Source: an uncultured Alphaproteobacteria bacterium (GTDB lineage: Bacteria > Electryoneota > RPQS01). Taken from it: a stretch of 43,012 nucleotides of DNA. The stretch covers positions 1 through 43,012 of the forward strand of contig CAZVXJ010000002.1 of the NCBI GenBank assembly GCA_964631675.1, read 5' to 3'. Below, piece after piece: positions 7,577-29,400 of this stretch. The notes beneath the pieces were generated by a model that worked only from the letters and a program-made list of their open reading frames with translations, did no database searches and was not told the DNA's origin. The position numbers and the translations under genes are program-made. The first letter of the stretch is position 1, and every line of letters starts with the position of its first letter.

Positions 7577-7660
7577 GCTCGAAAACAGAGGCATTCACTG
7601 AAATATTCCAATAATTATCAGGTTTTAAGTAATTGTTTTTTCTACATGGTTTAGTTTCTA

Positions 7661-7689: not shown

Positions 7690-7716
7690 GACAAAACCAC
7701 ACCAATAGCTTAAATT
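7688..7716 (+). promoter_or_regulatory. sigma70-like promoter for the Rrf2/Moco/nar operon
   Basis: It reads TTGACA (7688-7693) - 17 nt - TAAATT (7711-7716). The -10 hexamer ends 27 nt upstream of the ATG at 7744. Confidence 0.5.
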
Positions 7717-7743
7717 AGGAATACAGGATTAAGTACTCCACTA

Positions 7744-11964: not shown

Positions 11965-11980
11965 GTAACGGAGGCGAAGC

Positions 11981-12469
11981 ATGAACCACAACGGAACGAT
12001 CGTGGCCATTTCCATCAGTAAGAAGCGCGGGATTCCGAAGACGAATGTCCCGGCGATCAATCTCATAGAGGATTGGGGTATGGAAAATGACATCCATGCC
12101 GGAATGTGGCACCGCCAAATTAGTCTGCTTGCGTTCGAGAGCGTTTGCAAGATGCGTGAAAAGGGAGTAAACGTCCGTCCCGGCGCATTTGCCGAGAATA
12201 TCACGACTGAGTTTATCGACATTCCCAACCTCCACATAGGCGACCGTGTTGTCCTCGGGAGCGCAGAACTGGAGATTACTCAGATCGGGAAGGAGTGTCA
12301 TCAGAAGTGTGCTATCTTCTATCGTGCCGGAGATTGCGTGATGCCGCGTGAGGGTATCTTTGCCGTTGTTAAGCGCGGGGGCGAGATTCGAGTCGGCGAC
12401 ATGGTCACGGTAAGACCAGCTGAGCGGTCCGTGTGCCAGATCAGTCCATCGGAGAAGGCAGTTTCATGA
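11981..12469 (+). CDS. MOSC domain-containing protein
   Basis: This is a 162-aa beta-barrel-type sequence with HRQISLL, ENITT and the Cys-rich KECHQKCAIFYRAGDCVMPREGIFA motif. That motif is typical of small MOSC proteins found next to moa genes. Confidence 0.7.
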   Translation: MNHNGTIVAISISKKRGIPKTNVPAINLIEDWGMENDIHAGMWHRQISLLAFESVCKMREKGVNVRPGAFAENITTEFIDIPNLHIGDRVVLGSAELEITQIGKECHQKCAIFYRAGDCVMPREGIFAVVKRGGEIRVGDMVTVRPAERSVCQISPSEKAVS

Positions 12470-13230
12470 GTTGTCCGTTGATTGCTCATACAGACTTCTT
12501 TTTGGCCATTCTTGTGTTTGCCATAGCGGCACTGTACAGCTCGGTGGGTCACGGTGGCGCCTCGGGCTATTTGGCGGTGCTTTCGCTCTGGGGATTCAGT
12601 GCCAGTGAAATGTCGGCGAGTGCTCTGGCATTGAACATTGTGGTTGCAGGTATTGCCTGGTGGTCATACTCTCGTTCGGGACATTTTTCCTGGCTGGGCA
12701 CCTGGCCGTTCATTTTGTTGTCCGTTCCGGCTGCAGCTTTGGGCGGTATGCTCGATGTGCCGGAGTCCTGGTACAAAGCACTGCTTTCGTTCGCATTGAT
12801 CGCCGCGGCCGTCCGTATGACCCTGCCGCGGTGTTATCAGAAGAACGAGGGAGAAACTCGTTTCGTTCACAACGGCATTAAAGTCCTTTCCGGTGGAATT
12901 ATCGGACTTCTGAGCGGCATCGTCGGTGTGGGCGGCGGCATATTTCTCAGTCCGATAATGCTGTTGCTGCGATGGGCTGACATTAAGACAGTCTCCGCCA
13001 CTGCAGCGTGCTTTGTAGTCGTCAACTCCGTGGCAGGACTTCTCGGGCGCGGATCCTCAGGCATAGAATTCTTGCGTACACTCGGACTCGTGCCGGTGTT
13101 TGCGGTGGCCGGCGGCATGTTAGGCTCCACTTTCGGATCCGCTAGATCATCCCGTCCTGCTTTGCAGCGGGTACTCGCTGTCGTCTTGGTTATCGCCGCT
13201 GCTAAGATGGCGTCTTCATTGTTCACTTGA
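12466..13230 (+). CDS. TauE/SafE (TSUP) family anion-transport membrane protein
   Basis: The ATG at 12466 overlaps the MOSC stop (ATGA). There are ~8 hydrophobic helices in two halves, each with a Gly-rich motif (GHGGASGYL; VGGGIFLSP). Confidence 0.7.
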   Translation: MSCPLIAHTDFFLAILVFAIAALYSSVGHGGASGYLAVLSLWGFSASEMSASALALNIVVAGIAWWSYSRSGHFSWLGTWPFILLSVPAAALGGMLDVPESWYKALLSFALIAAAVRMTLPRCYQKNEGETRFVHNGIKVLSGGIIGLLSGIVGVGGGIFLSPIMLLLRWADIKTVSATAACFVVVNSVAGLLGRGSSGIEFLRTLGLVPVFAVAGGMLGSTFGSARSSRPALQRVLAVVLVIAAAKMASSLFT

Positions 13231-13242
13231 TGAGAACATAAA

Positions 13243-14091
13243 ATGAAAGCATCCGCAAGATCCTACCATCTTCGTTTGATCGCTCTTCGCTTCGGGTTGA
13301 TATTGCTGACGGCCGCGATGCTGCCTCACTCGGGACTTGCAGAGGCGACCGATTCGAGTGCGCAGCAATCTGAAACGAGTGTGTCAGCTGCGGCGTCCGA
13401 CACTTCTGCAGTAGATGATATCGCGAACAAATTTGTGCTAAAGTGTTCGGGCTGCCATACAGTCGGAGGAGGAAAGCTCTCCGGTCCCGATCTGCTTCCG
13501 ACAAGAGTGTGGCCAAAGCCTGATTTGTTTGCCAAAATCAAGACCATGGAAAATCGTGTCGGTCCGCTTGCTGATCAAGATATTCACGCCTTTGGCGATT
13601 TTCTACGAGATGACCGGGTGGAAGCACGAATAAAGATCGCGCAGGAACTCGCGGGAAAGGCTGTCGCACTCAAACTTGCTCCGGCATCGCTCGATATTGG
13701 CAGCGAACTATTTGATGGGCGCCGCGCACTTTCGGCGGGGGGCATTGCATGTATCAGCTGTCATCAGCATGGTATCAGAGGTGGAACACTCGGCCCCGAC
13801 CTCACCGAGATTCATGCGCGCCTTCCGAAGGTCGCCATGGTGTCTGCCATCCAGCAGTCGCAATACCGCGTCATGTCAGGAACCTATCAGAAGCATCCGA
13901 TCACCGCGCAGGAGTCTGTACACCTTGCTGAGTTCCTATCAACCCCAGTCAGCGGATCACAATCGGCGTCTGAAAGTTCTGTCACCAAGCTCGGTTACAT
14001 TACAGCTTTCTTCGGTTTCGCACTCATTATTGCTGCATATCGAAAGCGCTCGCCGGGCTACAAAGCATCACTTCATCGGAGACACTCATGA
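13243..14091 (+). CDS. narC: membrane-anchored dihaem c-type cytochrome, NarC-like
   Basis: It has a signal peptide and two CxxCH motifs (CSGCH 13444-13458; CISCH 13750-13764). A C-terminal hydrophobic anchor ([17 protein letters not shown]) is followed by basic residues. The stop overlaps the narG start (ATGA). Its position matches Thermus narC. Confidence 0.65.
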
Positions 14092-17000
14092 GCTGGATTA
14101 CTGACTTGTTCGATCCCAAACAGCGCGAGTGGGAGGACTTTTACCGCAATCGCTGGTCATATGACAAGATTGTGCGGAGCACGCACGGTGTGAATTGCAC
14201 CGGCTCATGCAGTTGGAACATCTATGTCAAGAATGGGATTGTCACGTGGGAAATGCAGGCGCTGGATTATCCGATCGTGGACAAAGATATCCCCCCCTAT
14301 GAGCCTCGCGGCTGCCAGCGCGGCATCTCCTATTCCTGGTATCTGTACAGCCCAATCCGCGTTAAGTACCCCTACATGAGAGGTGCGCTGCTGGACCTGT
14401 GGCGCAATGCCAGGCGGAACTTTCCCGACGACCCGGTTGCAGCCTGGGAGTCCATCGTCTCAAACCCCGTATCACGCAGAAAGTATCAGCAGGCACGGGG
14501 CAAAGGCGGATTCCGGCGAGTCAAATGGGATGAAGTCGTGGAGTTAATCGCAGCGTCAAACATACACACCATTCAAAAGTACGGTCCGGATCGAATTGTT
14601 GGATTTTCTCCGATTCCTGCCATGTCCATGGTGAGCTATGCCTCCGGTGCGAGATTCCTGCAGCTCGTGGGTGGTGTAGCACTTTCGTTCTATGACTGGT
14701 ACTGCGATCTCCCGCCTGCGTCGCCGGAGATCTGGGGCGAACAGACGGATGTTGCCGAAAGTGCGGATTGGTTCAACTCAAATTTTGTGGCGGTTGTCGG
14801 CTCTAATGTCCTGATGACACGCACGCCAGACGCACATTTTCTCGTCGAGGCCCGGCATCGCGGAGCAAAGGTTGTGGTCTTCACGCCTGACTTCAGCATG
14901 ACTTCGAAGATAGGCGACGAGTGGATTCCTATTCATCAGGGACAGGACGGTGCCTTCTGGATGTCGGTCGGGCATGTGCTCTTGAAGGAGTTTCATGTCG
15001 ACCGCCAGGTGCCTTATTTCGTGGAATACCAGAAAAAGTTTACGGACGGACCGATGCTGGTGAAACTCGAAAAGAATGCGCGCGGCGTCTACTCGCCCGG
15101 CTCACTCTTGCGCACAAGCAAAGTGGAATCGACGAAATCGCTCGACAACGCAGAGTGGAAATTCTTCATGCTGGATGGAAGCTCGGGTGAACTCAGAGTT
15201 CCGACTGGTACTGTCGGCCATCGCTGGCAAGAGAAGAAGGGTCAGTGGAATCTCAAACTCGAAGACGAACGCACGGGAGTATCATTTGATCCTCTGCTTT
15301 CGCTGTTCAGTGAAGACGCCGAAAAGCTGAGCATAGAACTCGCCGACTTTTCCGAAGCCCGGACGGATGCGCGAGTTAACGTGGACGTCCCTGTACGCCG
15401 CATCATGACGACGAATGGGCCGGTCTTTGTGGCAACGGCATTTGATCTGATGATTGCCCGGTATGGGGTTTCACGCTGGGGAACAGCGGCGGCCTACGAC
15501 GATATTTCACTGCCCTATACGCCCGCATGGCAGGAAAAATTCACCGGAGTCTCCGGCGATGTCGTCGTGAAATTCGCACGCGAGTGGGCCAGGACTGCCG
15601 AAATGACGAACGGTAAGTGCAGCGTGATCATCGGCGCGGGTGTCAATCACTGGTACCACAATAATCTCATCTACCGGGCGGTCATTTCCAGTCTCATGAT
15701 GTGCGGCTGCGTGGGAGTGAATGGCGGCGGTCTCAATCACTATGTTGGTCAGGAGAAGCTAACGCCTCAGGCTTCGTGGGGTCCCATCGCATTTGGAACC
15801 GACTGGGCGGCTCCGCCCAGATTGCAGAACGCACCCTCGTTTCACTACGTAAACTCTGATCAGTGGCGCTATGACAAAGCATTCGATGAGCTTTGTCCGG
15901 TCAGCGACCGCAAGCACCGCATGGCCAGCGGTCACACCATTGACAAGCAAATTCTTGCAGTTCGGGCTGGCTGGCTGCCTTGTTACCCGCAATTTAACCA
16001 GTCATCACTGGAGCTTGCGGCAGAGGCCATTCGAAACGGTGCAAAGGATGACGCCGAAGTTGTGCAATACGTGGTGAACAAACTCAAGTCCCGCAAGTTG
16101 AAATTTGCGATGGAGGACCCGGACTCGCCCGAGAATTTTCCGCGCGTCTGGTATATCTGGCGGGGAAACGCGTTGCTGTCTTCCGCCAAGGGACATGAAT
16201 ATTTTCTCAAGCACTACCTCGGCACGCACAACAACTTGATTGCCGAAGAACAGGCGCGAGATCAGGTCCAGGAGGCCACTTGGCACGATAAACTTGAGTT
16301 GGGCAAGATGGATCTTGTGGTGGATCTGAATTACCGGATGGATTCGTCTGCCCTCTACTCGGATATTGTGCTTCCCGCGGCCACCTACTACGAGAAGAAT
16401 GATCTGAATTCGACGGACATGCACAGCTTTATTCATCCGCTGCAAGCCGCCGTTCCGCCCTGCTGGGAATCGAAAAGTGACTGGGACATATTCCGTACAA
16501 TTGCTGAAGCGACATCAAGACTGGCGGAGCGCTATCTGCCCGATACATTGAAGGATGTGGTTGCGTCACCGCTTGCTCATGATACCGCAGCCGAGATTGC
16601 TCAACCGAGCATCAAAGATTGGTCCAAAGGGGAATGCGAGCCGGTTCCGGGCAAAACGATGCCGAATCTGAAAGTCGTCTCGCGCGACTACAAGAATGTC
16701 TACAACAAGTTCATCAGTCTTGGGCCGAACTATCGAAATGGCTTGGGAATGCACGGCACGACGTACGAGGTGGCTGACCTGTACGACGCCTATCTTGAGT
16801 CCAATCCGACCGAGAAGTGGGACGGAGCCGAATACCCATCGCTGCGCGAAGATGTGCTCGTGTGTGAGGCCATCCTGCATTTTGCCGCGGAAACGAACGG
16901 CGAACTTGCTTACCGCGCATTTAAGAGTGAGTCGAAGAAGACCGGAATTGACCATACGCATCTGGCTCGCGATACGCGAGCGGTCCGGATCACGTTTGAC

Positions 17001-17708
17001 TCTATTGCCGTTCAGCCGAGGCGCACTTTGACGACGCCTTTCTGGACCGGAATCGTCAATGACAACCGCACCTATTCCGCCTATTGTCAGAATGTGGAAG
17101 AGCTCATTCCGTGGCGGACTCTCACCGGACGACAGCACTACTATCTTGATCACGAAGCCTACGTTGCGTTTGGAGAAAATCTCCCGACGTTCAAACCCAG
17201 ACCGGATGCCGCCACCATGGGCGACCTGAAAAAAACCGGACGCGATGGCAGCGCTCTGGTACTCAATTACCTGACACCGCACGGCAAGTGGTCTATACAC
17301 TCGACGTTTGGCGATACGCTGCGAATGCGAACGCTTAGCCGGGGCCACGATCCAATCTGGATTAACGATAAAGATGCGCTGATGATTGGAGTTGAAGACA
17401 ACGACTGGGTTGAAATCTACAATGACCACGGTGTTGTCTGCACTCACGCTAATGTAAGCGCGCGCATTCCCCGCGGGATGTGCTTCATTTATCACTCGCC
17501 CGAGCGCACGCTCGGAGTTCCGAAATCTCCGGAACGCGGCATGCGGCGGGCAGGCGGGCACAACAGCCTCACGAGGGTGCGGCTGAAACCACTGTTCATG
17601 ATTGGTGGCTACGGCCAGTTCACCTATGCCTTCAATTATTGGGGACCGCAGGGAGTGAATCGCGATACCTATGTGGCGGTGAAGAAACTCAACAAGGTCG
17701 TCTGGTAG
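14088..17708 (+). CDS. narG: respiratory nitrate reductase alpha subunit NarG (cytoplasm-facing, no Tat motif)
   Basis: The FS0 motif [11 protein letters not shown] begins at 14184. [22 protein letters not shown] contains the Asp Mo-ligand context of E. coli NarG. The product is 1,206 aa and the N-terminus has no RRxF twin-arginine motif. Confidence 0.9.
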
Positions 17709-17729
17709 TCACACGCCGGAGAAACTAAG

Positions 17730-19223
17730 ATGGATATTCGAGCGCAAGTCTCCATGGTGTTCCACCTGGACAAATGCATTGGCTGTCATACCTGCAGCAT
17801 CGCCTGCAAAAATGTGTGGACGGATCGCCCCGGCGCGGAATACATGTGGTGGAATAATGTCGAAACCAAGCCCGGCACCGGCTATCCCAGACGGTGGGAA
17901 GATCAGCAGCGCTACAAGGGCGGCTGGAAACTGGATGCCGACCGGCATCTCAAACTGCGCAGTCAGGGGCGTCTCACCGGGCTGTTGAAGCTGTTCTACA
18001 ACCCGAATCAGCCGGAGCTGGATGATTATTACGAGCCGTGGACGTACGAGTACGAAAATCTGTTCGATGCACCGGCTGGTGACGACCAACCCACGGCCAA
18101 ACCAATCTCGCAGATTACCGGTGAAGAGATGGAGGTCAAGGCCGGCCCGAATTGGGACGATGATCTCTCCGGCTCGCCCGTGCACGCGGCAAATGATGTC
18201 AATTACGACAATCTGACGGATGAGGAACGCGCACAGCTGTTTGAAATTGAGCGCGTTGCTTTCATGTATCTGCCGAGAATCTGCAATCACTGTGCAAATC
18301 CAAGTTGCGTCGCTTCATGTCCATCGGGTGCTCTCTATAAGCGCGGCGAGGATGGGATTGTCCTGATCAACCAGAATGTCTGCCGGGGCTGGCGCGCTTG
18401 CGTATCGGCGTGTCCCTACAAGAAGATATACTACAACTGGCAGACGGGGAAATCGGAAAAGTGCATCCTCTGCTATCCAAGACTCGAAACCGGTCAGGCT
18501 CCGGCCTGCTTTCACAGCTGTGTGGGACGCATTCGTTACTTAGGTGTGCTGCTCTATGACGCCGACCGAATAGAGCAGGCCATGAAAACTGCGGACGAAC
18601 TTCTGGTGGAGGCGCAGCGCGAAGTGATCTGCGATCCCCATGATGATACCGTGATCGCTTCTGCAAGAGCCAATGGGATCAGCGACGAGTTTATCACAGC
18701 CGCACAGAAATCCCCCGTGTACAAGTACGTCATGGAATGGAAGCTCGCTCTCCCGCTGCACATCGAGTATCGAACGATGCCGATGCTGTTTTACGTGCCG
18801 CCGCTCCTGCCGGTCATGGGCAAGGGCGGCGACCAACCCTACGATCACGCCGCAGACGAGTTGTTCTCCAGTATTGACAAGGCGCGGGTCTCGATTAAAT
18901 ACCTTGCCAGGCTGTTCAGTGCCGGAAACGAGCGAATTGTGGAATCCGTCCTGAAGAAACTCATCGCGGTGCGATACTACAGAAGATCGAAAGATGTGAA
19001 AGATGTTGACAGCGCACTGGTTCAGAAGACCATGCGCGAGGCCGGAGTCACACCCGAACAGGCCGAGGAAATCTACCGCCTGACTGCCGTTCCGACCGTT
19101 CATCAAAGGTATGTGCTGCCGCCGCTCCAACGCGAAGAGGCCGTCGCCGAGAGCTGTAATGTTGAGCAATGCAAGGGCACCTGTGGATTCGGTCCATCCA
19201 CCTTACCGGTGAGAGGAGCTTAG
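17730..19223 (+). CDS. narH: respiratory nitrate reductase beta subunit NarH
   Basis: There are four Fe-S groups: CIGCHTCSIACK, CNHCANPSCVASCP, CRGWRACVSACP (the Trp-containing 3Fe-4S group) and CILCYPR..CFHSCVGRIRY. Confidence 0.9.
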   Translation: MDIRAQVSMVFHLDKCIGCHTCSIACKNVWTDRPGAEYMWWNNVETKPGTGYPRRWEDQQRYKGGWKLDADRHLKLRSQGRLTGLLKLFYNPNQPELDDYYEPWTYEYENLFDAPAGDDQPTAKPISQITGEEMEVKAGPNWDDDLSGSPVHAANDVNYDNLTDEERAQLFEIERVAFMYLPRICNHCANPSCVASCPSGALYKRGEDGIVLINQNVCRGWRACVSACPYKKIYYNWQTGKSEKCILCYPRLETGQAPACFHSCVGRIRYLGVLLYDADRIEQAMKTADELLVEAQREVICDPHDDTVIASARANGISDEFITAAQKSPVYKYVMEWKLALPLHIEYRTMPMLFYVPPLLPVMGKGGDQPYDHAADELFSSIDKARVSIKYLARLFSAGNERIVESVLKKLIAVRYYRRSKDVKDVDSALVQKTMREAGVTPEQAEEIYRLTAVPTVHQRYVLPPLQREEAVAESCNVEQCKGTCGFGPSTLPVRGA

Positions 19224-19226
19224 TTC

Positions 19227-19763
19227 ATGCCAAAGCCACCCAACAGGGACATTTACGGAGTACTTGCCCGGTTGCTGACCTATCCCTCGGAAAACTACGT
19301 CAATCTTGTCAACAGCATTGCATTAGGATGTTCCACTTCAAGAGCAAGCGCCTCGATCGAGCGATTCGCACAAGCCTTTGACCAGAAGAGTCAGGGCGAG
19401 TGCGAGGAGCTCTATACGCAGACCTTTGACCTTTCGCCGCCGTGCACTCCCAACGTCAGTGCGCACCTGTTCGGTGAGGAGAGTTTCAAGCGGGCAGCGC
19501 TCATGGCGAAACTTCGTGAGCATTTTAATCAAGTCGGATTAGACGCTGGCAGCGAGTTGCCCGATCACATTGCAACCTTGCTCAAGTTCATGGAGTTCGG
19601 ACCTGAAGAAATGCGCATAGACATGGATCGTCATGTCATTCGGCCTGCATTGGAGAAAATGTGCGGTATTCTCGGTCGCATCAAGAACCCGTATGCGCAC
19701 TTACTTGAAGCGGCGATAATCATTTTGCGCACCGAATTCGGGAGGGAGATAGCCCATGCTTGA
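19227..19763 (+). CDS. narJ: nitrate reductase molybdenum cofactor assembly chaperone NarJ (TorD family)
   Basis: Motifs are ELYTQTFD, HLFGEE and ELPDHIATLLKFMEF. It sits between narH and narI. Confidence 0.8.
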   Translation: MPKPPNRDIYGVLARLLTYPSENYVNLVNSIALGCSTSRASASIERFAQAFDQKSQGECEELYTQTFDLSPPCTPNVSAHLFGEESFKRAALMAKLREHFNQVGLDAGSELPDHIATLLKFMEFGPEEMRIDMDRHVIRPALEKMCGILGRIKNPYAHLLEAAIIILRTEFGREIAHA

Positions 19764-21072
19764 AATGTTTTTGCTCGTCGGATTGCCTTACCTCGCAATC
19801 ACTGTATGCATTGTCGGCACCGTGTACCGCTTCCGTTCCGATCGCTATCATGTCTCGTCTCTCTCATCGCAGTTTCTCGAGGGGCGCAAACTGCTATGGG
19901 GATCCGCCCCCTGGCATCTGGGTCTGGTCATTCTGTTTACCGGACATCTCGCCGCCTTCATTATGCCTGACTTCTGGCATGACCTGATGACTATCCCTGC
20001 ATTGCTATTTACGGTGGAAGTCATCGGAATTGCAGCGGCTCTGCTTTGCCTGCTTGGGCTGCTGGTTCTACTCTACCGCCGAATCACGACGGACAAACTT
20101 CAGCACGTTACCAAGACTGCCGACATCGTGGTGCTTGTTGTGCTGCTCGTTCAGATTGCACTTGGTCTTGCGACAGCGGTCGGTTACCGCTGGGGAGCGA
20201 TCTGGTCAACCGGCACGCTCTCACCCTATATCTGGAGCATCATCACGTTCCGCCCCGACGTTTCGCTGGTGCGCGATTTGCCGCTGCCCATTCAACTCCA
20301 TTTGACGGGAGCCTGGATTGTGCTGCTTGTCATTCCGTTCTCCCGTCTCATCCACATGTTCTCCGTACCCCTGCAGTACCTGATTCGCTCGCCGCAAATC
20401 GTTATCTGGAACAACTCGCGCAGAACCCGGCATGCCACATCCGCAGCCGTTCAGCAGGAGTCCCGTCGACATTTCGTGAAAGGGGCGGTCGGGCTGGCCG
20501 CAGCCGGAACGCTGCTCAGCGTCGGGGTGCTGGATAAAATGTTTCGCTTCTTTCAAATGCCCGGTCTTCACAAGGACGAGGAAGCCAAACTGCTTGAATC
20601 GCGGCTGAAGAGGCTGCATCTCACCGCCGAAGAAAAGCAGCTTGAACTTGAACGGTTGAGACAGGACGCGATTTTCGTGGCCAAGCTGGAGGATCTCAGC
20701 CCCAATCAAGGAAAGTACTTCATTGATTATGCCATGCGTCCGGCCATTGCTCTTGCAGGTGACGATGGCTGGCCGATGCTGATTTCCGCGAAGTGCACAC
20801 ACCTCGGCTGCACGGTCGGCAATCAAGTGGACAGCAACGGCAAGATACTTTGTCCCTGTCATGTGTCTTACTTTGATGTCAAAACTGGCATGCCCAATCC
20901 GGGTGCACCGGCGAAAGCGCCTCTCGGACGAATCGGTTACATCATTCAAGATGAATCGGGTGCGGAGATTGCCAGCGAATCTCCCCGTGGAACGCGCACC
21001 GGAAGACTGGACCTCGATTTCGCTTCTTCATACTCGGTTTATATCGTCAAGAGTCTCACTCCTGAGGCATGA
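19756..21072 (+). CDS. narI: NarI (nitrate reductase gamma, dihaem cytochrome b) fused to a TM-anchored Rieske [2Fe-2S] domain
   Basis: Residues 1-~222 form five TM helices with His pairs H54-x9-H64 and H182-x17-H200, the same spacing as in E. coli NarI. Then come SRRHFVKG plus a sixth helix, a charged linker, and Rieske boxes CTHLGC (20794-20811) and CPCH (20851-20862). No stop separates the two parts. Confidence 0.85.
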   Translation: MLEMFLLVGLPYLAITVCIVGTVYRFRSDRYHVSSLSSQFLEGRKLLWGSAPWHLGLVILFTGHLAAFIMPDFWHDLMTIPALLFTVEVIGIAAALLCLLGLLVLLYRRITTDKLQHVTKTADIVVLVVLLVQIALGLATAVGYRWGAIWSTGTLSPYIWSIITFRPDVSLVRDLPLPIQLHLTGAWIVLLVIPFSRLIHMFSVPLQYLIRSPQIVIWNNSRRTRHATSAAVQQESRRHFVKGAVGLAAAGTLLSVGVLDKMFRFFQMPGLHKDEEAKLLESRLKRLHLTAEEKQLELERLRQDAIFVAKLEDLSPNQGKYFIDYAMRPAIALAGDDGWPMLISAKCTHLGCTVGNQVDSNGKILCPCHVSYFDVKTGMPNPGAPAKAPLGRIGYIIQDESGAEIASESPRGTRTGRLDLDFASSYSVYIVKSLTPEA

Positions 21073-22175
21073 TGAAAAACTCCACTATCTACAAGCTCAC
21101 AGAATTCCTGGGTACTCGACTGCCGATCGAAACCCTGGATATTCGGCACATCATGACCGAAAAGGAAGTGCCGCTCCATCGTATGAGCTGGGCCTACTAT
21201 CTCGGCGGACTTGCATTTTTCTTCTTCCTGATTCAGGTACTGACCGGATTGATGCTGCTATTCTACTATGAACCGACGGTCAGCGAGGCCCACGAATCCG
21301 TGGAGTACATTACCAACTTTGTGATCATGGGCGGGCTGATTCGCAACATGCATGCGTGGTCCGCCACGTTCATGATTTTCTGTCTTATCGCGCACTTGTT
21401 GACGACGTTTTCCATGAAAGCTTTTTCCAAGCCGCGCGAACTCACCTGGATATCGGGAGTCCTGCTGCTGCTGGTTACGTTTGGATTCGGTTTTACCGGC
21501 TATCTTCTGCCCTGGAACCAGATCGCGGTGAACGCAACCAAGGTCGGCCTGCAATCCATTGAGCAAGTCGGACAGTATCTCCCTGCTGCGTTGTCGAATC
21601 TTGCGGAAGAGATCCGGGTGACAATACAAGGAGAGGCATCCATCGGTCAGGCAACGCTCAGCCGGTTCTTTGCCCTGCATGTTGTGGTGCTGCCTATGGC
21701 CATCATGGGAGTACTCGGCCTGCATTTACTTTCGGTTCAATTGCACGGAATGAGTCCGGGGGTTGAAAAACCGACTAAGAAGGCAGAGCGCTTCTTTCCA
21801 TTTTTTGTCATAAAAGATTTTTCCGAATGGGGAATTGCATTTCTGCTTTTGTTTGTCATCGCGCTTTGCCTCCCATTTGACTCGCTCATGCCATTTCCAC
21901 TTCTCGAACCATTCAATCCTCTGGGTTCAACTCCGGATGGCATCAAGCCCGAGTGGTATTTCTACTTCGTTTACTATCCGATGGAGTTGCTGCCGTTCTG
22001 GATCATCATTGTGGTGATGACCTTGGCAACCATAGGGTTGTTCCTCACTCCATGGATATTCAAGGGTACGAGCCACAAGGTGCTGCGCATTATCGCGAGT
22101 ACGGTGGCGCTTTACTTAACCGTTATGACACTGTTCGGCGAAGCAATCTATCACGCTATCAAGGGAGTCGGGTGA
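21069..22175 (+). CDS. cytochrome b of a Rieske/cyt b complex (b6 plus subunit-IV-like parts in one 368-aa polypeptide)
   Basis: Helix B has H-x13-H (HAWSATFMIFCLIAH). Helix D has H-x14-H (HVVVLPMAIMGVLGLH), the b6-type spacing. GYLLPWNQ is present, and the Qo-site PEWY motif (KPEWYFYF) lies at 21948-21959. The start overlaps the narI-Rieske stop (ATGA). Confidence 0.85.
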   Translation: MMKNSTIYKLTEFLGTRLPIETLDIRHIMTEKEVPLHRMSWAYYLGGLAFFFFLIQVLTGLMLLFYYEPTVSEAHESVEYITNFVIMGGLIRNMHAWSATFMIFCLIAHLLTTFSMKAFSKPRELTWISGVLLLLVTFGFGFTGYLLPWNQIAVNATKVGLQSIEQVGQYLPAALSNLAEEIRVTIQGEASIGQATLSRFFALHVVVLPMAIMGVLGLHLLSVQLHGMSPGVEKPTKKAERFFPFFVIKDFSEWGIAFLLLFVIALCLPFDSLMPFPLLEPFNPLGSTPDGIKPEWYFYFVYYPMELLPFWIIIVVMTLATIGLFLTPWIFKGTSHKVLRIIASTVALYLTVMTLFGEAIYHAIKGVG

Positions 22176-22180
22176 TTGCT

Positions 22181-22765
22181 ATGAAGTGTTCCATTTTGAT
22201 TGCGACGGCTCTGACAATGGTGCCGCATCTGCTGTACGCTTACCCTGAGTTTCAACGGTACTCACAGGAGCGATCTGGGCGGCCGGTGAACTGCGCCATG
22301 TGCCATATCAGTTCCGATGGTCCGGAGGGTTCGGGTCATGGTCAGATAGGAAGTCTGAATGGTGAGGAATTGAACCGCTTGAATCAGGCGCGTGGCGCCT
22401 TCGCACCGGGGCTCGCCGTGCGAAGTCCGATTCTGAATGAATTTGGGAACAATATCGTGCGGGTGATGGGAAAGCAGAAATTCGTTGAGTTGCGGTCCCG
22501 ACCCGCAGAGCTTCCGGCAAACTATGGGTTCAAGAGTGATCTCGATGGTGACGGTATTCCCGATGCTGAGGAATATCTGGATGGTACACAGCCCCTAAAT
22601 CGTTCACACGGGGCTCCCCTGAAGATATTCATGCACAATCTCATCGCCTACCGCTTTCACATCCTTATGATCGCATTGGCCACTGCCTCAGGGTTATATG
22701 GTCTTGCTCATCTGCTGAGAGGCTTTTCAGTCCGCATGGATCAATCCAAGGACGCACAAGCATGA
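22181..22765 (+). CDS. membrane-anchored monohaem c-type cytochrome (candidate cyt c1/f analogue of the module)
   Basis: The ATG at 22181 lies inside the longer track ORF 21953-22765. It has a signal-like N-terminus MKCSILIATALTMV and a single CAMCH (22292-22306). An acidic DLDGDGIPDAEEYLDG loop and a C-terminal TM helix (FHILMIALATASGLYGLAHLL) follow. The stop overlaps the next start (ATGA). Confidence 0.65.
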   Translation: MKCSILIATALTMVPHLLYAYPEFQRYSQERSGRPVNCAMCHISSDGPEGSGHGQIGSLNGEELNRLNQARGAFAPGLAVRSPILNEFGNNIVRVMGKQKFVELRSRPAELPANYGFKSDLDGDGIPDAEEYLDGTQPLNRSHGAPLKIFMHNLIAYRFHILMIALATASGLYGLAHLLRGFSVRMDQSKDAQA

Positions 22766-24279
22766 GCGAACAGGCGAAGGCCACGCGGGTCCTGGTGATG
22801 AACACGCTCGCATTCACCGTATGCTTTGCGTGCTGGATGATGAACGGCGTATTGATCACCCACCTGGTGGACAACGATGTCTTCCAGTGGGACAAAGCAC
22901 AGATGGGCTGGTTGATCGGAATTCCGGTCTTGAGTGGATCGCTTATGAGATTGCCGGTTGGAGTACTCACCGACAAGTATGGCGGGCGAAGCGTGTACAC
23001 CATCCTTATGCTGCTATCGGCCATTCCGATGTACATGATGAGCATGGCTGACACATATTTCGAGTTTTTTTTCGCCAGTCTTGGATTCGGATTGTCCGGT
23101 GCGGCATTCGCGGTGGGAATTGCATATACCTCCGTTTGGTTTCCGAAGCATCGTCAGGGTACAGCTCTGGGTATTTTTGGCGTCGGAAACGCAGGTTCAG
23201 CACTGACGAGCATGGTTGCCCCCATCGTGCTCGTCTCGCTTACGGATCACGGTTCAAATCTTGAGGGCTGGAGAACTCTGCCAAAGTATTATGCCGCCGG
23301 ACTCGTGGTGATGGCTATACTATTTTTCCTCTTGACCTATCCCAAACGTGCGGATCATACGGAAGGAATGACATTAAGACAGCGGCTTGAACCGCTGAAA
23401 TATGTTCGCGTCTGGCGCTTCGGACTTTATTACTTTCTGGTATTCGGTGCCTTCGTCGCGTTGGCACAGTGGCTGATTCCTTACTATGTGAATGTGTATA
23501 CCATGTCGGTCGCTGCGGCCGGTCTGATGGCGTCCATTTTCAGCTTGCCGTCGGGACTGATTAGAGCGCTTGGCGGATGGCTATCCGACCGCTTTGGTGC
23601 GCGCCGAATCATGTATTGGGTACTCGGTTCATGTCTGCTCGGCTGTGCATTGCTATGTGTGCCACGAATGGATATCGAGTCGCCCGGACCCGGCGTTACC
23701 GCCCAGAGAGCAGGAACGGTGATGGCGGTTTCCGATCGTGAGATATTGGTTGATCAGCGGACCTACTCCATTAGGCCGCAGCCTGAATCGTGGCGAGCAA
23801 TGCAGGACTCATCATTTCTGGTTTTTCCCTCGGGAGAGTTCTGGCACAGGCCGGTGGTCAAGGAAGGCGATAAAGTAGTCAAGAAGCAACTGCTGGCGCG
23901 GGGAGTTACGCATCTGTACTTTCAGGCAAACGTTTGGATTTTTACGGCCGTGCTTTTTCTGATTGGGATCATGATGGGGATCGGAAAAGCCGCCGTCTAT
24001 AAACATATTCCGGATTATTACCCGGATCAAGTTGGAGTCGTTGGCGGAATTGTCGGTGTGGTCGGCGGGCTTGGAGGGTTCATCTGTCCAATCATCTTCG
24101 GTTACATGCTGAAGTGGACAGGAATCTGGACGACGCTGTGGATATTCCTGGCAGTGTTGTCATTCATTTGCTTACTCTGGATGCACGTTGTAGTCCAGCG
24201 GATGATGCATCGGCAAACACCTCTCCTTATGCGCCACATTGAGGAGCAGACTCTGCCGCACCAACCCGCCAGAACCTAA
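22762..24279 (+). CDS. narK: NNP-family MFS nitrate/nitrite transporter (NarK1-type) with a ~90-aa loop insertion
   Basis: It has 12 predicted TM helices, LTDKYGGRS, and Gly-rich NNP signatures (GIFGVGNAGSA; GGIVGVVGGLGGF). The insertion is at residues ~301-389, between TM9 and TM10. Confidence 0.8.
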   Translation: MSEQAKATRVLVMNTLAFTVCFACWMMNGVLITHLVDNDVFQWDKAQMGWLIGIPVLSGSLMRLPVGVLTDKYGGRSVYTILMLLSAIPMYMMSMADTYFEFFFASLGFGLSGAAFAVGIAYTSVWFPKHRQGTALGIFGVGNAGSALTSMVAPIVLVSLTDHGSNLEGWRTLPKYYAAGLVVMAILFFLLTYPKRADHTEGMTLRQRLEPLKYVRVWRFGLYYFLVFGAFVALAQWLIPYYVNVYTMSVAAAGLMASIFSLPSGLIRALGGWLSDRFGARRIMYWVLGSCLLGCALLCVPRMDIESPGPGVTAQRAGTVMAVSDREILVDQRTYSIRPQPESWRAMQDSSFLVFPSGEFWHRPVVKEGDKVVKKQLLARGVTHLYFQANVWIFTAVLFLIGIMMGIGKAAVYKHIPDYYPDQVGVVGGIVGVVGGLGGFICPIIFGYMLKWTGIWTTLWIFLAVLSFICLLWMHVVVQRMMHRQTPLLMRHIEEQTLPHQPART

Positions 24280-24289
24280 AGGAGCGCAC

Positions 24290-25855
24290 ATGGCACGCAC
24301 ACTCGATAACTGGGACGTTGAGAATTCCAATTTCTGGGAGACTCACGGAAAGAAAGTCGCGTTCCGCAACCTTTGGATATCGGTTCCGGCCCTGCTCTGC
24401 GGATTTGCGGTCTGGATGTACTGGTCCATTGTAACGACCCGAATGCAGGATCTGGGCATCATGTTTGACCCCGATCCGGGTACGAACAAATCTCTGCTCT
24501 ATACTCTGATGTCAATTTCCGGTTTGACCGGCGCGACACTCCGAATTCCCAATTCATTTTTTGTCGCTCTGAGTGGCGGGCGAACAGCCGTGGCCGTTAC
24601 GACAGCCCTGCTCATACTGCCCGCGCTGGGATTGGGAATTGCTCTGCAGAATCCTGCAACTCCGTATTCCACTTATGTTGTGTTGGCCGCACTCTCGGGA
24701 ATCGGTGGCGGCGCGTTCGCCTCATCCATGTCCAATATCTCGTTCTTCTTTCCCAAACGCATGCAGGGCATGGCGCTCGGTCTGAATGCCGGTCTTGGCA
24801 ATCTGGGTGTCAGCGTCATGCAGGTTATGCTGCCGTTTGCAATGACGTTCGGATTGTTTGGTGCACTTGGTGGAAACCCCAAACCACTGCCCAAGGCGGT
24901 AGCAGGTATGGCAGCTGGCACAAACATCTGGATTCAGAATTGCGGCCTTGTATGGGTTCCGATCCTTGCGGCGCTTGCGGTGCTGGCATGGATGCTGATG
25001 AGCAATCTCGCGATTCACCGGATTGGCCCGGCACTTGTTGCCATCGTGAAGATGCTGTATCTGATTCTGCTCGGTTTTGGAGCGTCTGCCGTAGGATTAT
25101 ACATGCTGCTGCCGCTCAAGATCAACATGTGGCTGGTCCTGCCGGTAACCATCATTCTCACGCTGCTGCTGATTCGGTACATGTCGCCCGGCATGATCCG
25201 AAAAAACCTGGCCGGACAGTTTGTCATTTTTCAGAAGAAGCACAACTGGGTGATGACATGGCTGTATGTCATGACGTTCGGGTCGTTCATCGGGTACTCT
25301 GCGGCGTTTCCCAAATTAATTCAGGATGTATTCGGATACCTGCCGGACGGCTCACCGAATCCCAATGCGCCCAGTCCGTTTGCATACGCGTGGCTCGGCC
25401 CATTGGTGGGTTCACTGGTGCGACCTCTTGGAGGCTGGTTGTCCGACAAGTTTGGCGGCGCGCGGGTCACACAATGGGACACTGTGCTTATGGTGCTTGC
25501 GGCAATTGGTGCGGCGGTGGCCGTCAGGGCAGCAAATTCTTCTGCTACTCCGGAGACTTACTTTTTTCCATTTCTCGTACTCATGCTGCTGCTGTTTGTG
25601 ACGTCCGGCATCGGAAATGGATCCACGTTTCGAATGATTCCGGTCATCTTCGAACCAAAACTTGCAGGTCCGGTACTCGGATGGACTTCGGCCATAGCTG
25701 CATACGGTTCCTTCATCATTCCGAAAGTGTTCGGTGCACAAATCCAATCAGGACACCCGGAATATGCGTTCTTCGGTTTCGCCGTCTATTACGTTACCTG
25801 CCTCGGTGTCAACTGGTGGTTCTATGCGAGGTCCGGGGCAGAGATTCGCTGTTAG
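24290..25855 (+). CDS. narK: NNP-family MFS nitrate/nitrite transporter (E. coli NarK-like, NarK2-type)
   Basis: The ATG at 24290 has AAAGGAG upstream. The N-terminus NWDVENSNFWETHGKKVAFRNLWISVPALLCGFAVWMYWS is colinear with E. coli NarK. Signatures are GLNAGLGNLG and TSGIGNGSTFRMIP. Confidence 0.85.
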   Translation: MARTLDNWDVENSNFWETHGKKVAFRNLWISVPALLCGFAVWMYWSIVTTRMQDLGIMFDPDPGTNKSLLYTLMSISGLTGATLRIPNSFFVALSGGRTAVAVTTALLILPALGLGIALQNPATPYSTYVVLAALSGIGGGAFASSMSNISFFFPKRMQGMALGLNAGLGNLGVSVMQVMLPFAMTFGLFGALGGNPKPLPKAVAGMAAGTNIWIQNCGLVWVPILAALAVLAWMLMSNLAIHRIGPALVAIVKMLYLILLGFGASAVGLYMLLPLKINMWLVLPVTIILTLLLIRYMSPGMIRKNLAGQFVIFQKKHNWVMTWLYVMTFGSFIGYSAAFPKLIQDVFGYLPDGSPNPNAPSPFAYAWLGPLVGSLVRPLGGWLSDKFGGARVTQWDTVLMVLAAIGAAVAVRAANSSATPETYFFPFLVLMLLLFVTSGIGNGSTFRMIPVIFEPKLAGPVLGWTSAIAAYGSFIIPKVFGAQIQSGHPEYAFFGFAVYYVTCLGVNWWFYARSGAEIRC

Positions 25856-25899
25856 TGCCTTCGGCTATGAGTCCACTGTTTGTACGAGAATGAATTTAC

Positions 25900-25921
25900 C
25901 CCCACCTGATTACAGGTGGGG
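25900..25921 (+). terminator. terminator hairpin at the end of the nar operon
   Basis: A perfect 9-bp stem ccccacctg / caggtgggg has a 4-nt loop and lies 45 nt after the stop. It is followed by an A/T-rich attaattca rather than a clean T-run. Confidence 0.55.
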
Positions 25922-26096
25922 ATTAATTCATGCAGTTTTGATGATGAATACTAGAGTAAGAACTGGGAGATTTCCGCAGCGGTTGACGGGTCGTCAGTAC
26001 TTCGCTCGCTTGGGCCGCCTGACTGAACACGTGCATAGTCAAAGCAGGTGAATAATACTGAACCTTGGCTGCGCATGGCTTTACTGTAATATTCGG

Positions 26097-26125
26097 TTGA
26101 CCTCTGCAGGAGAATTGCATATATT
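26097..26125 (+). promoter_or_regulatory. sigma70-like promoter ~370 nt upstream of the giant ORF
   Basis: It reads TTGACC (26097-26102) - 17 nt - TATATT (26120-26125). Confidence 0.4.
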
Positions 26126-26354
26126 ACGGTGGTAGTTCACATTCTAATATGTTAGTTTACGCCGGGCTGTACTTGTAAGTTGGTTAACAAATGGGCACCC
26201 TATGGAGTCCACCCAAATGGCAGCACAAGTTATTCATAACTTGTTGGATAAAATACTCGTGAAGTGGTCATATTTGCATCGGGCGGCAGGTGCAGATCTA
26301 TGTTCATCAGTGCGATTCTTTACCGCTTGTACTCACAAAATCGTGATTTGGAAT

Positions 26355-26378
26355 AGGCCGGTGACTAATCACCGGCCT
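26355..26378 (+). other. strong hairpin in the leader of the giant ORF (terminator/attenuator-like)
   Basis: A perfect 10-bp stem aggccggtga / tcaccggcct has a 4-nt loop and is followed by ctctgattctt. Confidence 0.4.
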
Positions 26379-26497
26379 CTCTGATTCTTAAGGAATGCTG
26401 GCATGGACGCCGTTTGGTGTTTCGAGGAGCGTTAGAGCCCCATATGAGTCAGGCAAAGGCTTAGTGGCCGATTATCAGATTTGAACGGGAGAATCCA

Positions 26498-29400
26498 ATG
26501 AAGTTAATGGTGAAGGTGTTTGGTTTTTCGCTGGTCCTCTTCTTCACCGCAGCAAGAGCGACCAATGTGGCAGTGAGCGTGACCAATTTCGCCTATACTC
26601 CAAGCACAGTAGTGGTTGCAACAGGCGACACGATAACATGGACTCGCGTGTCAGGCACTCACAATGTGCATCACAACGTAGCCATACCAAAGTTTCACAA
26701 CTCCGTAGGCGGCGCCTGGACGACCTATGTTTGGCCGTGTACGGTCGGCGTAGACGTACTGCCGTATCTATGCGAGCTGCATACGATTTCGACAGGTCAA
26801 GTTTCTGTTGCGGATATCTCCATCACCCTTCCATCCGGCAGCAGTTACTGGGCAACGGAATTACCGCATACAATCGCCTGGAACTCAGCTAATCTTCCCG
26901 GATCCGCAAATGTATCGATTGAATTGAATCGAGCCTATCCGGGTCCCGGCTGGGAGACGATTGTGAGCAGCACCCTCAATGACGGCACACATGCCTTTAA
27001 TCTCACGGGTCCCGCTTCTAATCATGCGAGGGTGCGAATTCGTGCGCTTGCAACGGCCACGATTTCCGGGTCCATTTCCGATACCAATGATTCTGATTTC
27101 ATCATTACGACTCAGTCCGGATTTAGTAATGAGTTGATTGGCTACTGGCCGCTTTCGGCAAATGCAGAAGACTCGAGCGGCCGGGGTAACACATTGGCTA
27201 ACAATCAGGTTGTCTTTGTTTCCGACCGGTATGGCTTTCCAGATGCTGCGGGTTATTTTAACGGTGCATCTGCTTTTCTGTCCACGGAACAGCCTTCCTT
27301 CGCCTTCCATCCCGACAGCGCGTTTACGTTTTCGCTGTGGGCAAGAATCGATTCCTTTAGCAGCGACCTCAATAGTCCGTGCACGATGGCATTCAATGGG
27401 ATCCTTCCTGGGGGCAATCTTGTCTGGATGATGGGTACTCAGCACAGCCAGCTTCGCTTTAGCGGCGCCCAGCAGCAGCATCAGAATGGCTGGCATTCTG
27501 CCGACTGGAGTGTATCCAATCTCACCCTCGGAAATTGGTACCATGTTGTCGGAGTTTACGAAAACCGCATTTTCCGCGAATACGTTGACGGAGTTCAGAG
27601 GGCTGTCAGCAGCGCATTGACCGAAAATCCCCAGGCGGCGGTTATGCCCTTTGCCATCGGCGCGACCCATGTGGCACCGGGTAACACGTGGGGTTTTTTC
27701 AAAGGCGCAATGGACGAGGTCCGACTTTACAGCAGGGCTCTCAGTGAAGGGGAAATCCTCTCGCTCTACCAGCCACTACCAACACTTTCCGGATCGCTTT
27801 CGGGCACTATCACTTCAGGAGAATACCTTGTGGTTGATTCGGTCTTCGTGGATAGCGGAGCCGTTTTGACGATAGAACCGGGAACACGAGTTATTTTCGA
27901 TGCCTGTGTGCCGCTGCTTGTTCGGGGGACGCTATTGGCCATGGGCAGCGAGACCGACTCGATCACATTTCTTGCGGATACGACGGGCGATCCAAACTGG
28001 TGGCAGGGCGTCTATCTTGTGGATACTGCATCCACTCGCAGTCAATTGCAATACTGCAACTTCCGTTTCGGTCAGCCTCCGGCGAGCTTATACTCATACT
28101 CGCGCACGGCGGGCGGCATCACATGCCACAATACATCACCTGAGATTTCCGACTGCACGGTGGAGTTATGTCAGACTGCGGGCATGGCAACCGCGTACTT
28201 TGCCAGCCCGCAGATCAGCCGCTGCGTTATACGGAATAATTCGGGTCATGGCATTCAAATGGGTGATTACGGGTATGGAACGATTCAATACTGTGTCATC
28301 ACAGAGAATTCAGGATCAGGTGTACTCACGGATGGCAATTTTGCAAGTATTCTGTTCACCGATTGCGACGTGACTTTGAACGGGGCTGACGGGGTTCGCC
28401 TGATATCGCAATTTCAACCATTCATTCTCGATCGCTGCCGTGTGAGTCAAAACTACGGGGCGGGAATTCGGATGAGTGGCGCCGAACTTGAAGCCAGAAA
28501 TTGCCGAATTGAACAAAACATGGGAGATGGAGTTCTTGTCAACACTTTCAATGGCACCATCGAGAATTGCATTTTGGGCGAGAATCAGGGCAATGGCATA
28601 ACTTTTCTCTACGGCGGCGGCTCGGTTAATCACTGCACATTTCACTCCAATCAGGGCATCGCTGTATTATGCAACCATGCTGAGCCTGTAAGCATCGAAA
28701 ACTCCATTCTAAATGGAAGTGAAATAGCTGAGCTTCAAATTGATCCTGATGAGTTCTGGCCGCAGCCAGTTGTTGTTCATAATTGTGTGATTTGGGGCGC
28801 AGCACAATTATGTAGTGGGACCTGTCCAGAAGGACTTCTCGAACTGAATTCTGTCAATGCAAATGGGGACCTGTGTGACATCTATCAAAATCTGGCAATG
28901 GACCCGGAGTTTGCAGACCCGCCAAATTCCGACTATTTGCTCCTTGATACCAGCCCCTGCATCGGCGCAGGAGACTTGGCTACTGCGATAAACTTTGACA
29001 TGGACGGCAATCCGCGCCCCGATCCACCGGGCTCGCTGCCGGATATCGGAGCATTCGAGAGTCCGGAAGGGTCGGTTCAAACTGAATGCACGCTTTCAGG
29101 ACCGCTGCCGGCTCAGGTCGGTCCAGGTGTGTGTCATGTAGTCGGAGATATTTCCGTAGCCGCGGGGACGACAACAACCATTGTTCAAGGCACCACGCTA
29201 ATATTCGACGGTGCCTTCCAATTCATGGTTCATGGTGCCCTGCTGGCACTTGGAACCGTTTCAGATTCAATCATCTTCACATCAAGCAATGTCGAACCAA
29301 ACCGCTGGCGTGGACTGCGGATTGAGAGCACGAATGACACTTCGCGACTAGCCTACTGCAAGATTGAAAACGCTCATGCAACCGGTGCGGAGCCGCAGGA

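Follow-up and report, generated by a model that had tools for sequence, protein, structure and literature searches.

The window analysed here is a stretch of 43,012 nucleotides (nt) from an uncultured bacterium (contig CAZVXJ010000002.1 of GenBank assembly GCA_964631675.1, positions 1 to 43,012 of the forward strand), and our subject is the respiratory nitrate reductase (Nar) operon that it carries. The operon is tightly packed on the + strand and runs from an Rrf2 regulator through the molybdenum cofactor (Moco) genes and a TauE gene into narC-G-H-J-I::Rieske-cytb-cytC and then into two genes for NarK-family transporters of the major facilitator superfamily (MFS). Three genes with coupled translation separate narJ from narK; they encode a NarI::Rieske fusion, a cytochrome b and a membrane-anchored monohaem cytochrome c, called CytC below (Table 1). 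As read from the sequence, narI::Rieske and the cytochrome b gene overlap in an ATGA at 21069-21072, the cytochrome b gene is separated from cytC by a gap of 5 nt (22176-22180), and the cytC stop and the first narK start share an ATGA at 22762-22765. Upstream, the narC stop overlaps the narG start (ATGA, 14088-14091) and the end of narJ overlaps the start of narI::Rieske by 8 nt. A scan of positions 7300-26600 for promoters and terminators returned no convincing break between genes; promoter-like hits were at background, and terminator-like hits numbered 26 against 18.2 ± 4.1 in shuffled sequences, about 2 standard deviations above. A first-pass annotation of this DNA had already placed the three genes between narJ and narK and had described their junctions as coupled. 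Pfam, NCBIfam and the motifs agree with the gene assignments, and both ATGA overlaps and the 5-nt gap read as it claimed. The trio that it listed therefore stands, but it missed the dihaem narC as well as the form in which the trio stands alone.

The fusion protein matches Pfam Nitrate_red_gam over amino acids (aa) 4-218 (1.4e-62) and Rieske over aa 307-381 (4.4e-07), and it passes the NCBIfam narI equivalog TIGR00351 with 135.1 bits (cut-off 105.55). The haem ligands H54, H64, H182 and H200 align with H56, H66, H187 and H205 of Escherichia coli NarI and are invariant in 81 sequences; the glycines equivalent to G65 and G94 are also kept. The C-terminus of NarI, which in E. coli we take to be cytoplasmic, is followed by an RR motif, the least hydrophobic transmembrane (TM) helix and the Rieske domain, a topology that is self-consistent. 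In alignments of 20-81 homologues the Rieske motifs CTHLGC...CPCH are invariant, disulfide cysteines included, as is the second Arg of the internal twin-arginine translocation (Tat) motif, the first Arg being nearly so. At the tuning positions, Ser371/Phe373, the Rieske domain has one of two hydrogen-bond donors (rule from PMC3509893). The sixth TM helix has the lowest Kyte-Doolittle score of the six (1.69) and is followed by K262 and R264, and by these sequence features the fusion fits the rules for dual Sec/Tat membrane proteins in PMC5449189. An AlphaFold2 (AF2) model of the fusion reached a mean predicted local distance difference test (pLDDT) of 82.4 and a predicted TM-score (pTM) of 0.47, with low confidence in the linker. 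Foldseek matched its NarI part to E. coli NarI at a TM-score of 0.81 and its C-terminal part to Rieske folds; as a guide to Rieske-NarI geometry the model was rejected on account of the pTM and the linker.

One feature sets the fused NarI apart from others. Lys86 of E. coli NarI, a residue of the quinol-oxidation site, has K/R/N/H as its equivalent in 6 unfused NarI, whereas V/F/A/L predominate in 81 sequences of the fused family. Glu88 of the window NarI is invariant in the fused family and among the 6 unfused NarI is common only to that of Thermus; it may be a signature of NarC-associated NarI. Other natural NarI fusions were met as well, namely a monohaem cytochrome c::NarI protein (P0259, 474 aa) and a NarI::MFS transporter protein (P0285, 644 aa), and NarI appears to be a recurrent fusion partner.

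The cytochrome b matches Pfam Cytochrome_B (8.8e-41) and Cytochrom_B_C (5.5e-05) and has 7 predicted TM helices, with b6 and subunit IV in one chain. Its four His ligands and the PEWY motif of the Qo site are invariant in 74 family members, so the haem and Qo residues that had been claimed for it are all present in a proper alignment. The description of this protein as b6-type holds for the H-x13-H/H-x14-H spacing but not for the haem-cn cysteine, which is absent (YLGG), nor for the single polypeptide. The N-terminal half is best matched by cyanobacterial cytochrome b6 (165 bits); the NCBIfam cytochrome b6 model gives 197 bits against a cut-off of 325, and the protein falls under the cut-offs of all NCBIfam cytochrome b models. 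On the negative (n) side of the membrane, after helix D, the motif Q224/H226/G227/M228/S229 is invariant in the 74 sequences, which include complexes that stand alone without NarI, and it matches neither the bc1 residues (His/Ser/Asp) nor those of b6 (Arg207 with haem cn). Taken together, the cytochrome b ligands, PEWY, the Rieske motifs and the n-side motif indicate that the bc module is intact.

CytC appears from its sequence to be a monohaem c-type cytochrome of a new family. It has no Pfam match above cut-off (a weak TSP3_bac match lies below it), no NCBIfam match, and no relative in the PDB by sequence or profile search; its 496 homologues are hypothetical wherever they are named, bar one with an automatic TSP3-repeat label. 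The AF2 model is confident (pLDDT 93.4, pTM 0.79) and all-alpha, and Foldseek found no match for it in the PDB (best E 7.6). By analogy, with its signal peptide, single CxxCH and C-terminal anchor, CytC would occupy the topological place of cytochrome c1/f; no homology to cytochrome c1, cytochrome f or dihaem QcrC emerged from the Pfam, NCBIfam, PDB and Foldseek searches. The family alignment contains no invariant Met or second His. A near-invariant YPEFQ coincides with the predicted signal-peptidase site and precedes CAMCH by 16 residues, and the mature N-terminus (YPEFQ...SGRxVNCAMCH) resembles YPIFAQQ...GRIVCANCH of cytochrome f, in which the amino group of Tyr1 is the sixth haem ligand. 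Because no Met or second His is invariant and YPEF lies at the predicted cleavage site, the haem of CytC may be ligated, as in cytochrome f, by the alpha-amino group of the mature N-terminal Tyr. BLASTP of CytC against a cytochrome f sequence aligned only the N-terminal ~25 residues (13/29 identical, E 0.021), and homology to the cytochrome f fold was rejected in view of the confident all-alpha model and the lack of any such match in Pfam, PDB sequence and Foldseek searches. The protein also has an EF-hand-like loop, the region of the weak TSP3_bac match, in which D120, D122, D124, D128 and E131 are invariant and which may be a Ca2+-binding site.

The remaining subunits are those of a cytoplasmic nitrate reductase with a dihaem partner. 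NarG scores 1536.5 bits against the NCBIfam narG equivalog TIGR01580 (cut-off 1084), is 60% identical to Thermus NarG and aligns with E. coli NarG at 1265 bits; NarH scores 659.9 bits against TIGR01660 (cut-off 524) and carries Pfam Fer4_11 and Nitr_red_bet_C, so that NarG, NarH and NarI all reach curated nitrate-reductase equivalog scores. NarJ matches Pfam Nitrate_red_del (45.3 bits, cut-off 22.2) and stays under the 59-bit cut-off of the NCBIfam narJ model with 36 bits. A twin-arginine motif was looked for at the N-terminus of NarG and none was found, and two NarK-family transporters are encoded downstream; on these grounds NarG is predicted to be cytoplasmic, as had been proposed from the letters of the sequence. 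Both MFS genes match the NCBIfam NarK family and NarU models with scores under the cut-offs. With its listed TTG start (24239) the second shares 41 nt with the end of the first, and its true start may lie further downstream. NarC contains Pfam Cytochrome_CBB3 and Cytochrom_C, and over 105 aa its second haem domain shows 36% identity with NarC of Thermus thermophilus (E 3e-11). Membrane anchors are predicted for both NarC and CytC, that is, for all three c-haems, and none of these therefore looks like a soluble shuttle.

Table 1. Genes, domains and motifs in the window, with the Nar and bc genes first and the flanking genes last
Feature	Position	Strand	Remarks
narC	13243-14091	+	282 aa, dihaem cytochrome c, membrane-anchored
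NarC N-terminal signal/TM	13270-13326		predicted
NarC haem motif CSGCH	13444-13458
NarC haem motif CISCH	13750-13764
NarC C-terminal TM	13981-14037		predicted
narG	14088-17708	+	1206 aa, catalytic subunit with molybdenum-bis(molybdopterin guanine dinucleotide) (Mo-bisMGD)
NarG FS0 motif HGVNCTGSC	14184-14210		aa 33-41, H-x3-C-x3-C
narH	17730-19223	+	497 aa, iron-sulfur subunit
narJ	19227-19763	+	178 aa, assembly chaperone
narI::Rieske	19756-21072	+	open reading frame (ORF) of 438 aa
NarI domain	19756-20409	+	aa 1-218; haem ligands H54, H64, H182, H200
NarI K86-equivalent region	20002-20019		aa 83-88
Internal Tat motif SRRHFVKG	20461-20484	+	aa 236-243
Sixth TM helix of fusion	20476-20532	+
30-residue periplasmic helix	20572-20661	+
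Rieske domain	20668-21048	+	about aa 305-431
Rieske CTHLGC	20794-20811	+	aa 347-352
Rieske CPCH	20851-20862	+	aa 366-369
Cytochrome b	21069-22175	+	ORF of 368 aa
YLGG	21198-21209	+	where haem-cn CxGG would be
H95-x13-H109	21351-21395	+
H204-x14-H219	21678-21725	+
n-side motif Q-L-H-G-M-S	21738-21755	+
Qo motif PEWY	21948-21959	+	aa 294-297
cytC	22181-22765	+	ORF of 194 aa
CytC signal peptide	22181-22240	+	predicted
CytC N-terminus resembling cytochrome f	22241-22306		aa 21-42
CytC mature N-terminus YPEF	22241-22252	+
CytC CAMCH	22292-22306	+	aa 38-42
CytC Ca-binding-like loop DLDGDGIPD	22538-22564	+	DLDGDGIPDAEE, aa 120-128
CytC C-terminal TM anchor	22661-22717	+	aa 161-179
First NarK-family nitrate/nitrite MFS transporter	22762-24279	+	Pfam MFS_1
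Second NarK-family nitrate/nitrite MFS transporter	24239-25855	+	Pfam MFS_1
ScdA/YtfE	6094-6876	-	Pfam
Rrf2 regulator	6928-7365	-	Pfam
Rrf2 regulator	7744-8154	+	Pfam
MobA	8120-8848	+	Pfam
MoaA	8829-9821	+	Pfam
MoaC-MoaB	9821-10762	+	Pfam
MoeA	10714-11964	+	Pfam
MOSC	11981-12469	+	Pfam
TauE/SafE-family membrane protein	12433-13230	+	Pfam; between Moco genes and narC

The arrangement is not peculiar to this genome. A search with the fusion protein gave 569 homologues at E <= 1e-10, and the best 120 of these are all about 438 aa long, contain both Pfam domains and, where they are named at all, are annotated as 'nitrate reductase gamma subunit', bar one 'hypothetical protein'. For the locus scan, which took one genome per species, we examined the best 80 loci of 516 matches, all from metagenome-assembled genomes (MAGs); the 516 matches rest on Rieske-domain patterns and include stand-alone forms, so they do not represent 516 fusions. 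By tblastn with the window proteins, the order NarC-NarG-NarH-NarJ-NarI::Rieske-CytB-CytC is kept in 80/80 loci where the contig has room; the same fusion and gene order in every locus is far more than chance would give. The 80 loci span at least 12 phyla, with hosts in Hydrogenedentota, Verrucomicrobiota, Obscuribacterales/Melainabacteria, Planctomycetota, Sumerlaeota, Acidobacteriota, Bacteroidota, Omnitrophota, Eisenbacteria, Gemmatimonadota, Myxococcota, FCPU426 and others, and the MAGs most closely related to the window are Calditrichota-like (fusion 65-68% identity, NarG 77-78%). The only neighbour families that recur at these loci are Rrf2 (19), YtfE (11), TauE (6), MoaA and Crp/Fnr, and the 80 loci show no recurrent nir, nor, nos or nrf family next to the module. 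In the window itself the Rrf2 and YtfE genes suggest NsrR-like control by nitric oxide (NO) or nitrite. An apparent split of NarI and Rieske in an Acidobacteriota MAG (L092 8253-9588, identical to L136, on a 2.0 Mb contig) was set aside as a probable assembly frameshift and not a true intermediate; there the NarI and Rieske high-scoring segment pairs (aa 1-223 and 221-437) abut in different frames, and the called Rieske ORF is without a Tat motif. The parts, their motifs and topology signals, the fusion, its synteny and its distribution are thus established directly, as is the autonomy of the trio, to which we now turn.

A HMMER search of cluster representatives found full-length fusions in only a handful of 50%-identity clusters, together with stand-alone Rieske proteins of the same subfamily that carry a Tat motif and a single TM helix and share with the fusion the 30-residue helical linker and the cluster-binding segments. 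Several of these belong to trios of Rieske, cytochrome b (366 aa) and CytC (188-212 aa) with no nar gene within 9 kb, as in L090, L091 (Sumerlaeaceae), L093, L094 and a contig of the Joint Genome Institute (JGI), and further trios occur in L095, L130 (Chloroflexota) and L156 (Omnitrophota). The window proteins share 57% identity with these in cytochrome b and 43-46% in CytC, and in a neighbour-joining tree the stand-alone copies interleave with the nar-linked ones. In one sample of loci the ratio of fused to stand-alone was about 65 to 10. No clear case of both forms in one genome, which would hint at a dedicated Nar-linked copy, was found, and one MAG has two stand-alone copies. That the trio also occurs away from nar genes makes it an autonomous module of the complex-III type and a quinol:cytochrome c oxidoreductase complete in itself and of a separate kind, which is fused to Nar in most cases but not in all. 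The stand-alone trio usually adjoins its own partner cytochrome c. At L090 5297-8421, L093 5528-8856 and L094 11431-14346 we observed a recurrent gene set beside it, made up of a cytochrome c of ~110 aa (not seen in L090), a larger cytochrome c (~210 aa in L093/L094, 342 aa in L090), a hemerythrin (not called in L090) and a signal-peptide protein of 420-530 aa that has no Pfam family, ends in FILGxWxI[W/M/F] and is outer-membrane beta-barrel-like; these genes could form a porin-cytochrome-type partner system.

The closest characterised relative of the operon is NarCGHI of Thermus thermophilus (narCGHJIKT), which likewise has a gene for a dihaem membrane-anchored NarC 5' of narG and two MFS transporters downstream. 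Its NarI is the closest unfused relative found, in a plasmid collection, at about 40% identity and with Glu at the E88 position. In Thermus, however, narI is followed directly by narK, with no Rieske fusion, cytochrome b or CytC. Thermus NarC binds NarI, is needed for Nar maturation and has been proposed as an electron carrier between NarI and periplasmic partners (PMC7694296); NarI is there taken as the quinol oxidase and NarC as the exit branch. Because of the shared operon order, the NarG identity and the NarC homology, the window operon can be read as narCGHJI-KK of Thermus type that has acquired Rieske, cytochrome b and CytC by insertion, the Rieske gene being joined to narI in frame.

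Our preferred reading, to which we give a probability of about 45%, is that the seven genes narC-G-H-J-I::Rieske-cytb-cytC encode one supercomplex in which Q-cycle electrons pass via Rieske, CytC and NarC into NarI at 4 H+/2e-. A hybrid Nar-bc supercomplex was also the proposal of the first-pass annotation, and the fusion, the strict synteny and the consistent topology make it the natural one. In such an assembly a self-sufficient Rieske/cytochrome b/cytochrome c quinol oxidase would be tethered covalently, through the Rieske anchor, to a Thermus-type NarCGHI. Menaquinol would be oxidised at the Qo site of cytochrome b; one electron would travel through haems bL/bH to the n-side quinone site, completing a Q cycle, and the other from the Rieske [2Fe-2S] cluster to the CytC haem, the two NarC haems, the distal and then the proximal haem of NarI, and on through NarH to NarG, where nitrate would be reduced in the cytoplasm. 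Per nitrate, 4 H+ would be released outside and 4 H+ consumed inside (2 at the n-side site, 2 at NarG), a yield of 4 H+/2e- against the 2 H+ per 2 e- that the redox loop of textbook NarGHI conserves. When nitrate is absent, NarC would probably also act as a junction to periplasmic acceptors. The assembly of the complex, the order of the carriers and the H+/e- ratio are what we infer here. Menaquinone is the quinone used by host phyla such as Verrucomicrobiota, Planctomycetota, Acidobacteriota, Bacteroidota, Melainabacteria and Myxococcota. The roughly 0.5 V between menaquinol and nitrate is enough for 4 H+/2e-, an argument made in PMC7931247.

We favour the high-potential route into NarI because all carriers between Qo and NarI are membrane-anchored (Rieske by the fusion, CytC and NarC by their own anchors), because NarC homologues contact NarI and nature has also joined a cytochrome c to NarI (P0259), because no nir/nor/nos/nrf family recurs beside the module, because the K86 equivalent is mostly hydrophobic in the fused family, and because the same coupling has been proposed for Streptomyces Nar1 with bcc. 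Several points weigh against this reading. The relative position of the NarI and Rieske domains in the AF2 model is unreliable. The loss of K86 is only suggestive, as there is a one-residue alignment gap nearby, and the invariant E88, five residues downstream of the K86 position, might still support a quinol site in NarI. At the Qi site the residues depart from the canonical ones, with Gln in place of the His of bc1 and the Arg of b6. One step would be uphill, as c-type haems usually have a higher potential than haem bD of E. coli NarI. Genes of the nir/nor/nos type could lie elsewhere in the host genomes. Finally, the direction proposed for Thermus is from NarI to NarC and outward, not inward (PMC7694296).

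The main rival is a complex that is tethered yet electronically parallel, in which NarI oxidises menaquinol for nitrate, the bc module and NarC feed periplasmic reductases of nitrite, NO or nitrous oxide (N2O) or an oxidase, and the fusion has no function beyond co-assembly, stoichiometry or co-regulation. This rival resembles the first role that the first-pass annotation had offered, a splitting of quinol electrons between nitrate and N-oxide reductases; we do not favour it, since no cytochrome-c-dependent reductase recurs beside the module in 80 loci, and consider it doubtful while still a live rival. NarC is proposed in Thermus to pass electrons outward to Nir/Nor, substituting for complex III (PMC7694296), the stand-alone trio clearly serves other partners, and NarI still has its four haem ligands, the glycines that correspond to G65 and G94, and an invariant Glu in the membrane that could bind quinol, all of which would suit a parallel arrangement. 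Against these stand the membrane anchoring of all c-haems and the mostly hydrophobic K86 equivalent, and co-regulation alone needs no covalent fusion kept across at least 12 phyla. The two schemes do not exclude each other, as NarC may be the junction between them.

The annotation's other two roles fare worse. A sideways diversion of the bL/bH electron into the NarI haems and on to nitrate, with the Rieske electron going to periplasmic cytochromes, could draw on the fact that the fusion must put NarI beside cytochrome b in the membrane, and on the absence of haem cn (YLGG) with non-canonical Qi residues. The n-side loop is nonetheless invariant in 74 sequences, NarI-free complexes included, which argues for a conserved intrinsic n-side site; NarI retains distal haem ligands that such a route would not need, and the route has no precedent, so we think it improbable. 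We judge still lower the chance that the system runs in reverse as a nitrite oxidoreductase (NXR), with an oxidase taking the electrons that leave through NarI and NarC, while the bc module works backwards to reduce quinone. The Nitrobacter-type cytoplasmic NXR does have a similar gene set with a NarC-like cytochrome (PMC7694296). Yet NarG, NarH and NarI pass nitrate-reductase equivalog cut-offs, the closest characterised relative is the Thermus nitrate reductase, and the neighbours (NsrR-like Rrf2, YtfE, Crp/Fnr) are typical of anaerobic nitrate respiration and lend no support to nitrite oxidation. The host lineages are heterotrophs and are not known to be nitrifiers.

Coupling of a Q cycle to Nar has been discussed in two other settings. 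In Streptomyces coelicolor, electrons from Rieske/cytochrome b of the bcc-aa3 supercomplex are proposed to reach the NarI haems of Nar1 via a dihaem cytochrome c, at 4 H+/2e- (Falke et al. 2021, PMC7931247). The partners there are separately encoded, their association was inferred from genetics and co-purification, and bcc also serves the aa3 oxidase (PMC7931247), whereas the window has a gene fusion, a dedicated operon and a different c subunit. In haloarchaea and Methanoperedens, Rieske/cytochrome b genes occur in nar clusters and a Q cycle has been proposed to feed Nar (PMC3509893, PMC4683180). The pNar enzymes of these archaea have NarGH outside (Tat-exported), no NarI, no fusion and a relay through a soluble cytochrome b or multihaem c, while in the window NarG is predicted to be cytoplasmic and NarI is present and fused. 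In PMC3509893 the Nar of bacteria is said to bypass the Rieske/cytochrome b complex. The bc module itself recalls cytochrome b6f and the 'green clade' in its His spacing, PEWY, b6-like N-terminal half, cytochrome f-like signal peptide plus C-terminal anchor, and the YPxF...GRxV.CAxCH pattern of the mature c subunit; it differs in that b6 and subunit IV form one chain, the haem-cn cysteine is missing and the c subunit is predicted to be all-alpha, unlike the beta-rich cytochrome f. Like the dual Sec/Tat actinobacterial Rieske protein Sco3746 (PMC5449189), the fusion has a twin-arginine motif before a weakly hydrophobic last TM helix and an external cofactor domain, but its N-terminal polytopic part is a complete dihaem NarI, and the family is absent from the list in PMC5449189. 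In the open-access literature we found no description of the NarI-Rieske fusion or of this c subunit. Dibrova et al. 2017 mention that cytochromes b of a long type, their clade G', occur in 'large conserved operons ... of an unknown function'; this may or may not be the clade described here.

Some features of the flanking DNA are recorded here for completeness. The two Rrf2 genes are divergent, with promoter-like hexamers between them at 7404-7432 and 7688-7716. For the TauE gene near the module, anion export may be one possible role. Directly downstream of the nar operon an open frame of >5516 codons (26465-43012, + strand) runs past the end of the window; its start is like a signal peptide, and it contains 10 right-handed beta-helix stretches, a NosD-like region, and Laminin_G_3, CARDB and GH43_C2/ConA-like domains, and from these it looks like a giant secreted or surface protein.

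The finding is built from known kinds of parts, Nar and Rieske/cytochrome b, and it is real and widespread. We propose more tentatively that it represents an undescribed widespread class in which a Q cycle is hard-wired to cytoplasmic Nar through a new complex III type, with a c subunit of new fold and possible Tyr ligation. The finding also defines a new type of complex III with a new cytochrome c family, adds a predicted example of dual Sec/Tat insertion and would offer structural biology a natural stoichiometric Nar-bc assembly. Current annotation hides it, the fusion being called 'nitrate reductase subunit gamma' and the c subunit 'hypothetical'. Earlier arguments for Q-cycle-driven Nar were all indirect and concerned Streptomyces spores and haloarchaeal pNar; here a gene fusion and a seven-gene operon would encode the coupling directly, and both are conserved across abundant, mostly uncultured lineages of soil, freshwater and wastewater. 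If this is true, the ATP yield of nitrate respiration in these hosts would be up to twice that assumed in models.

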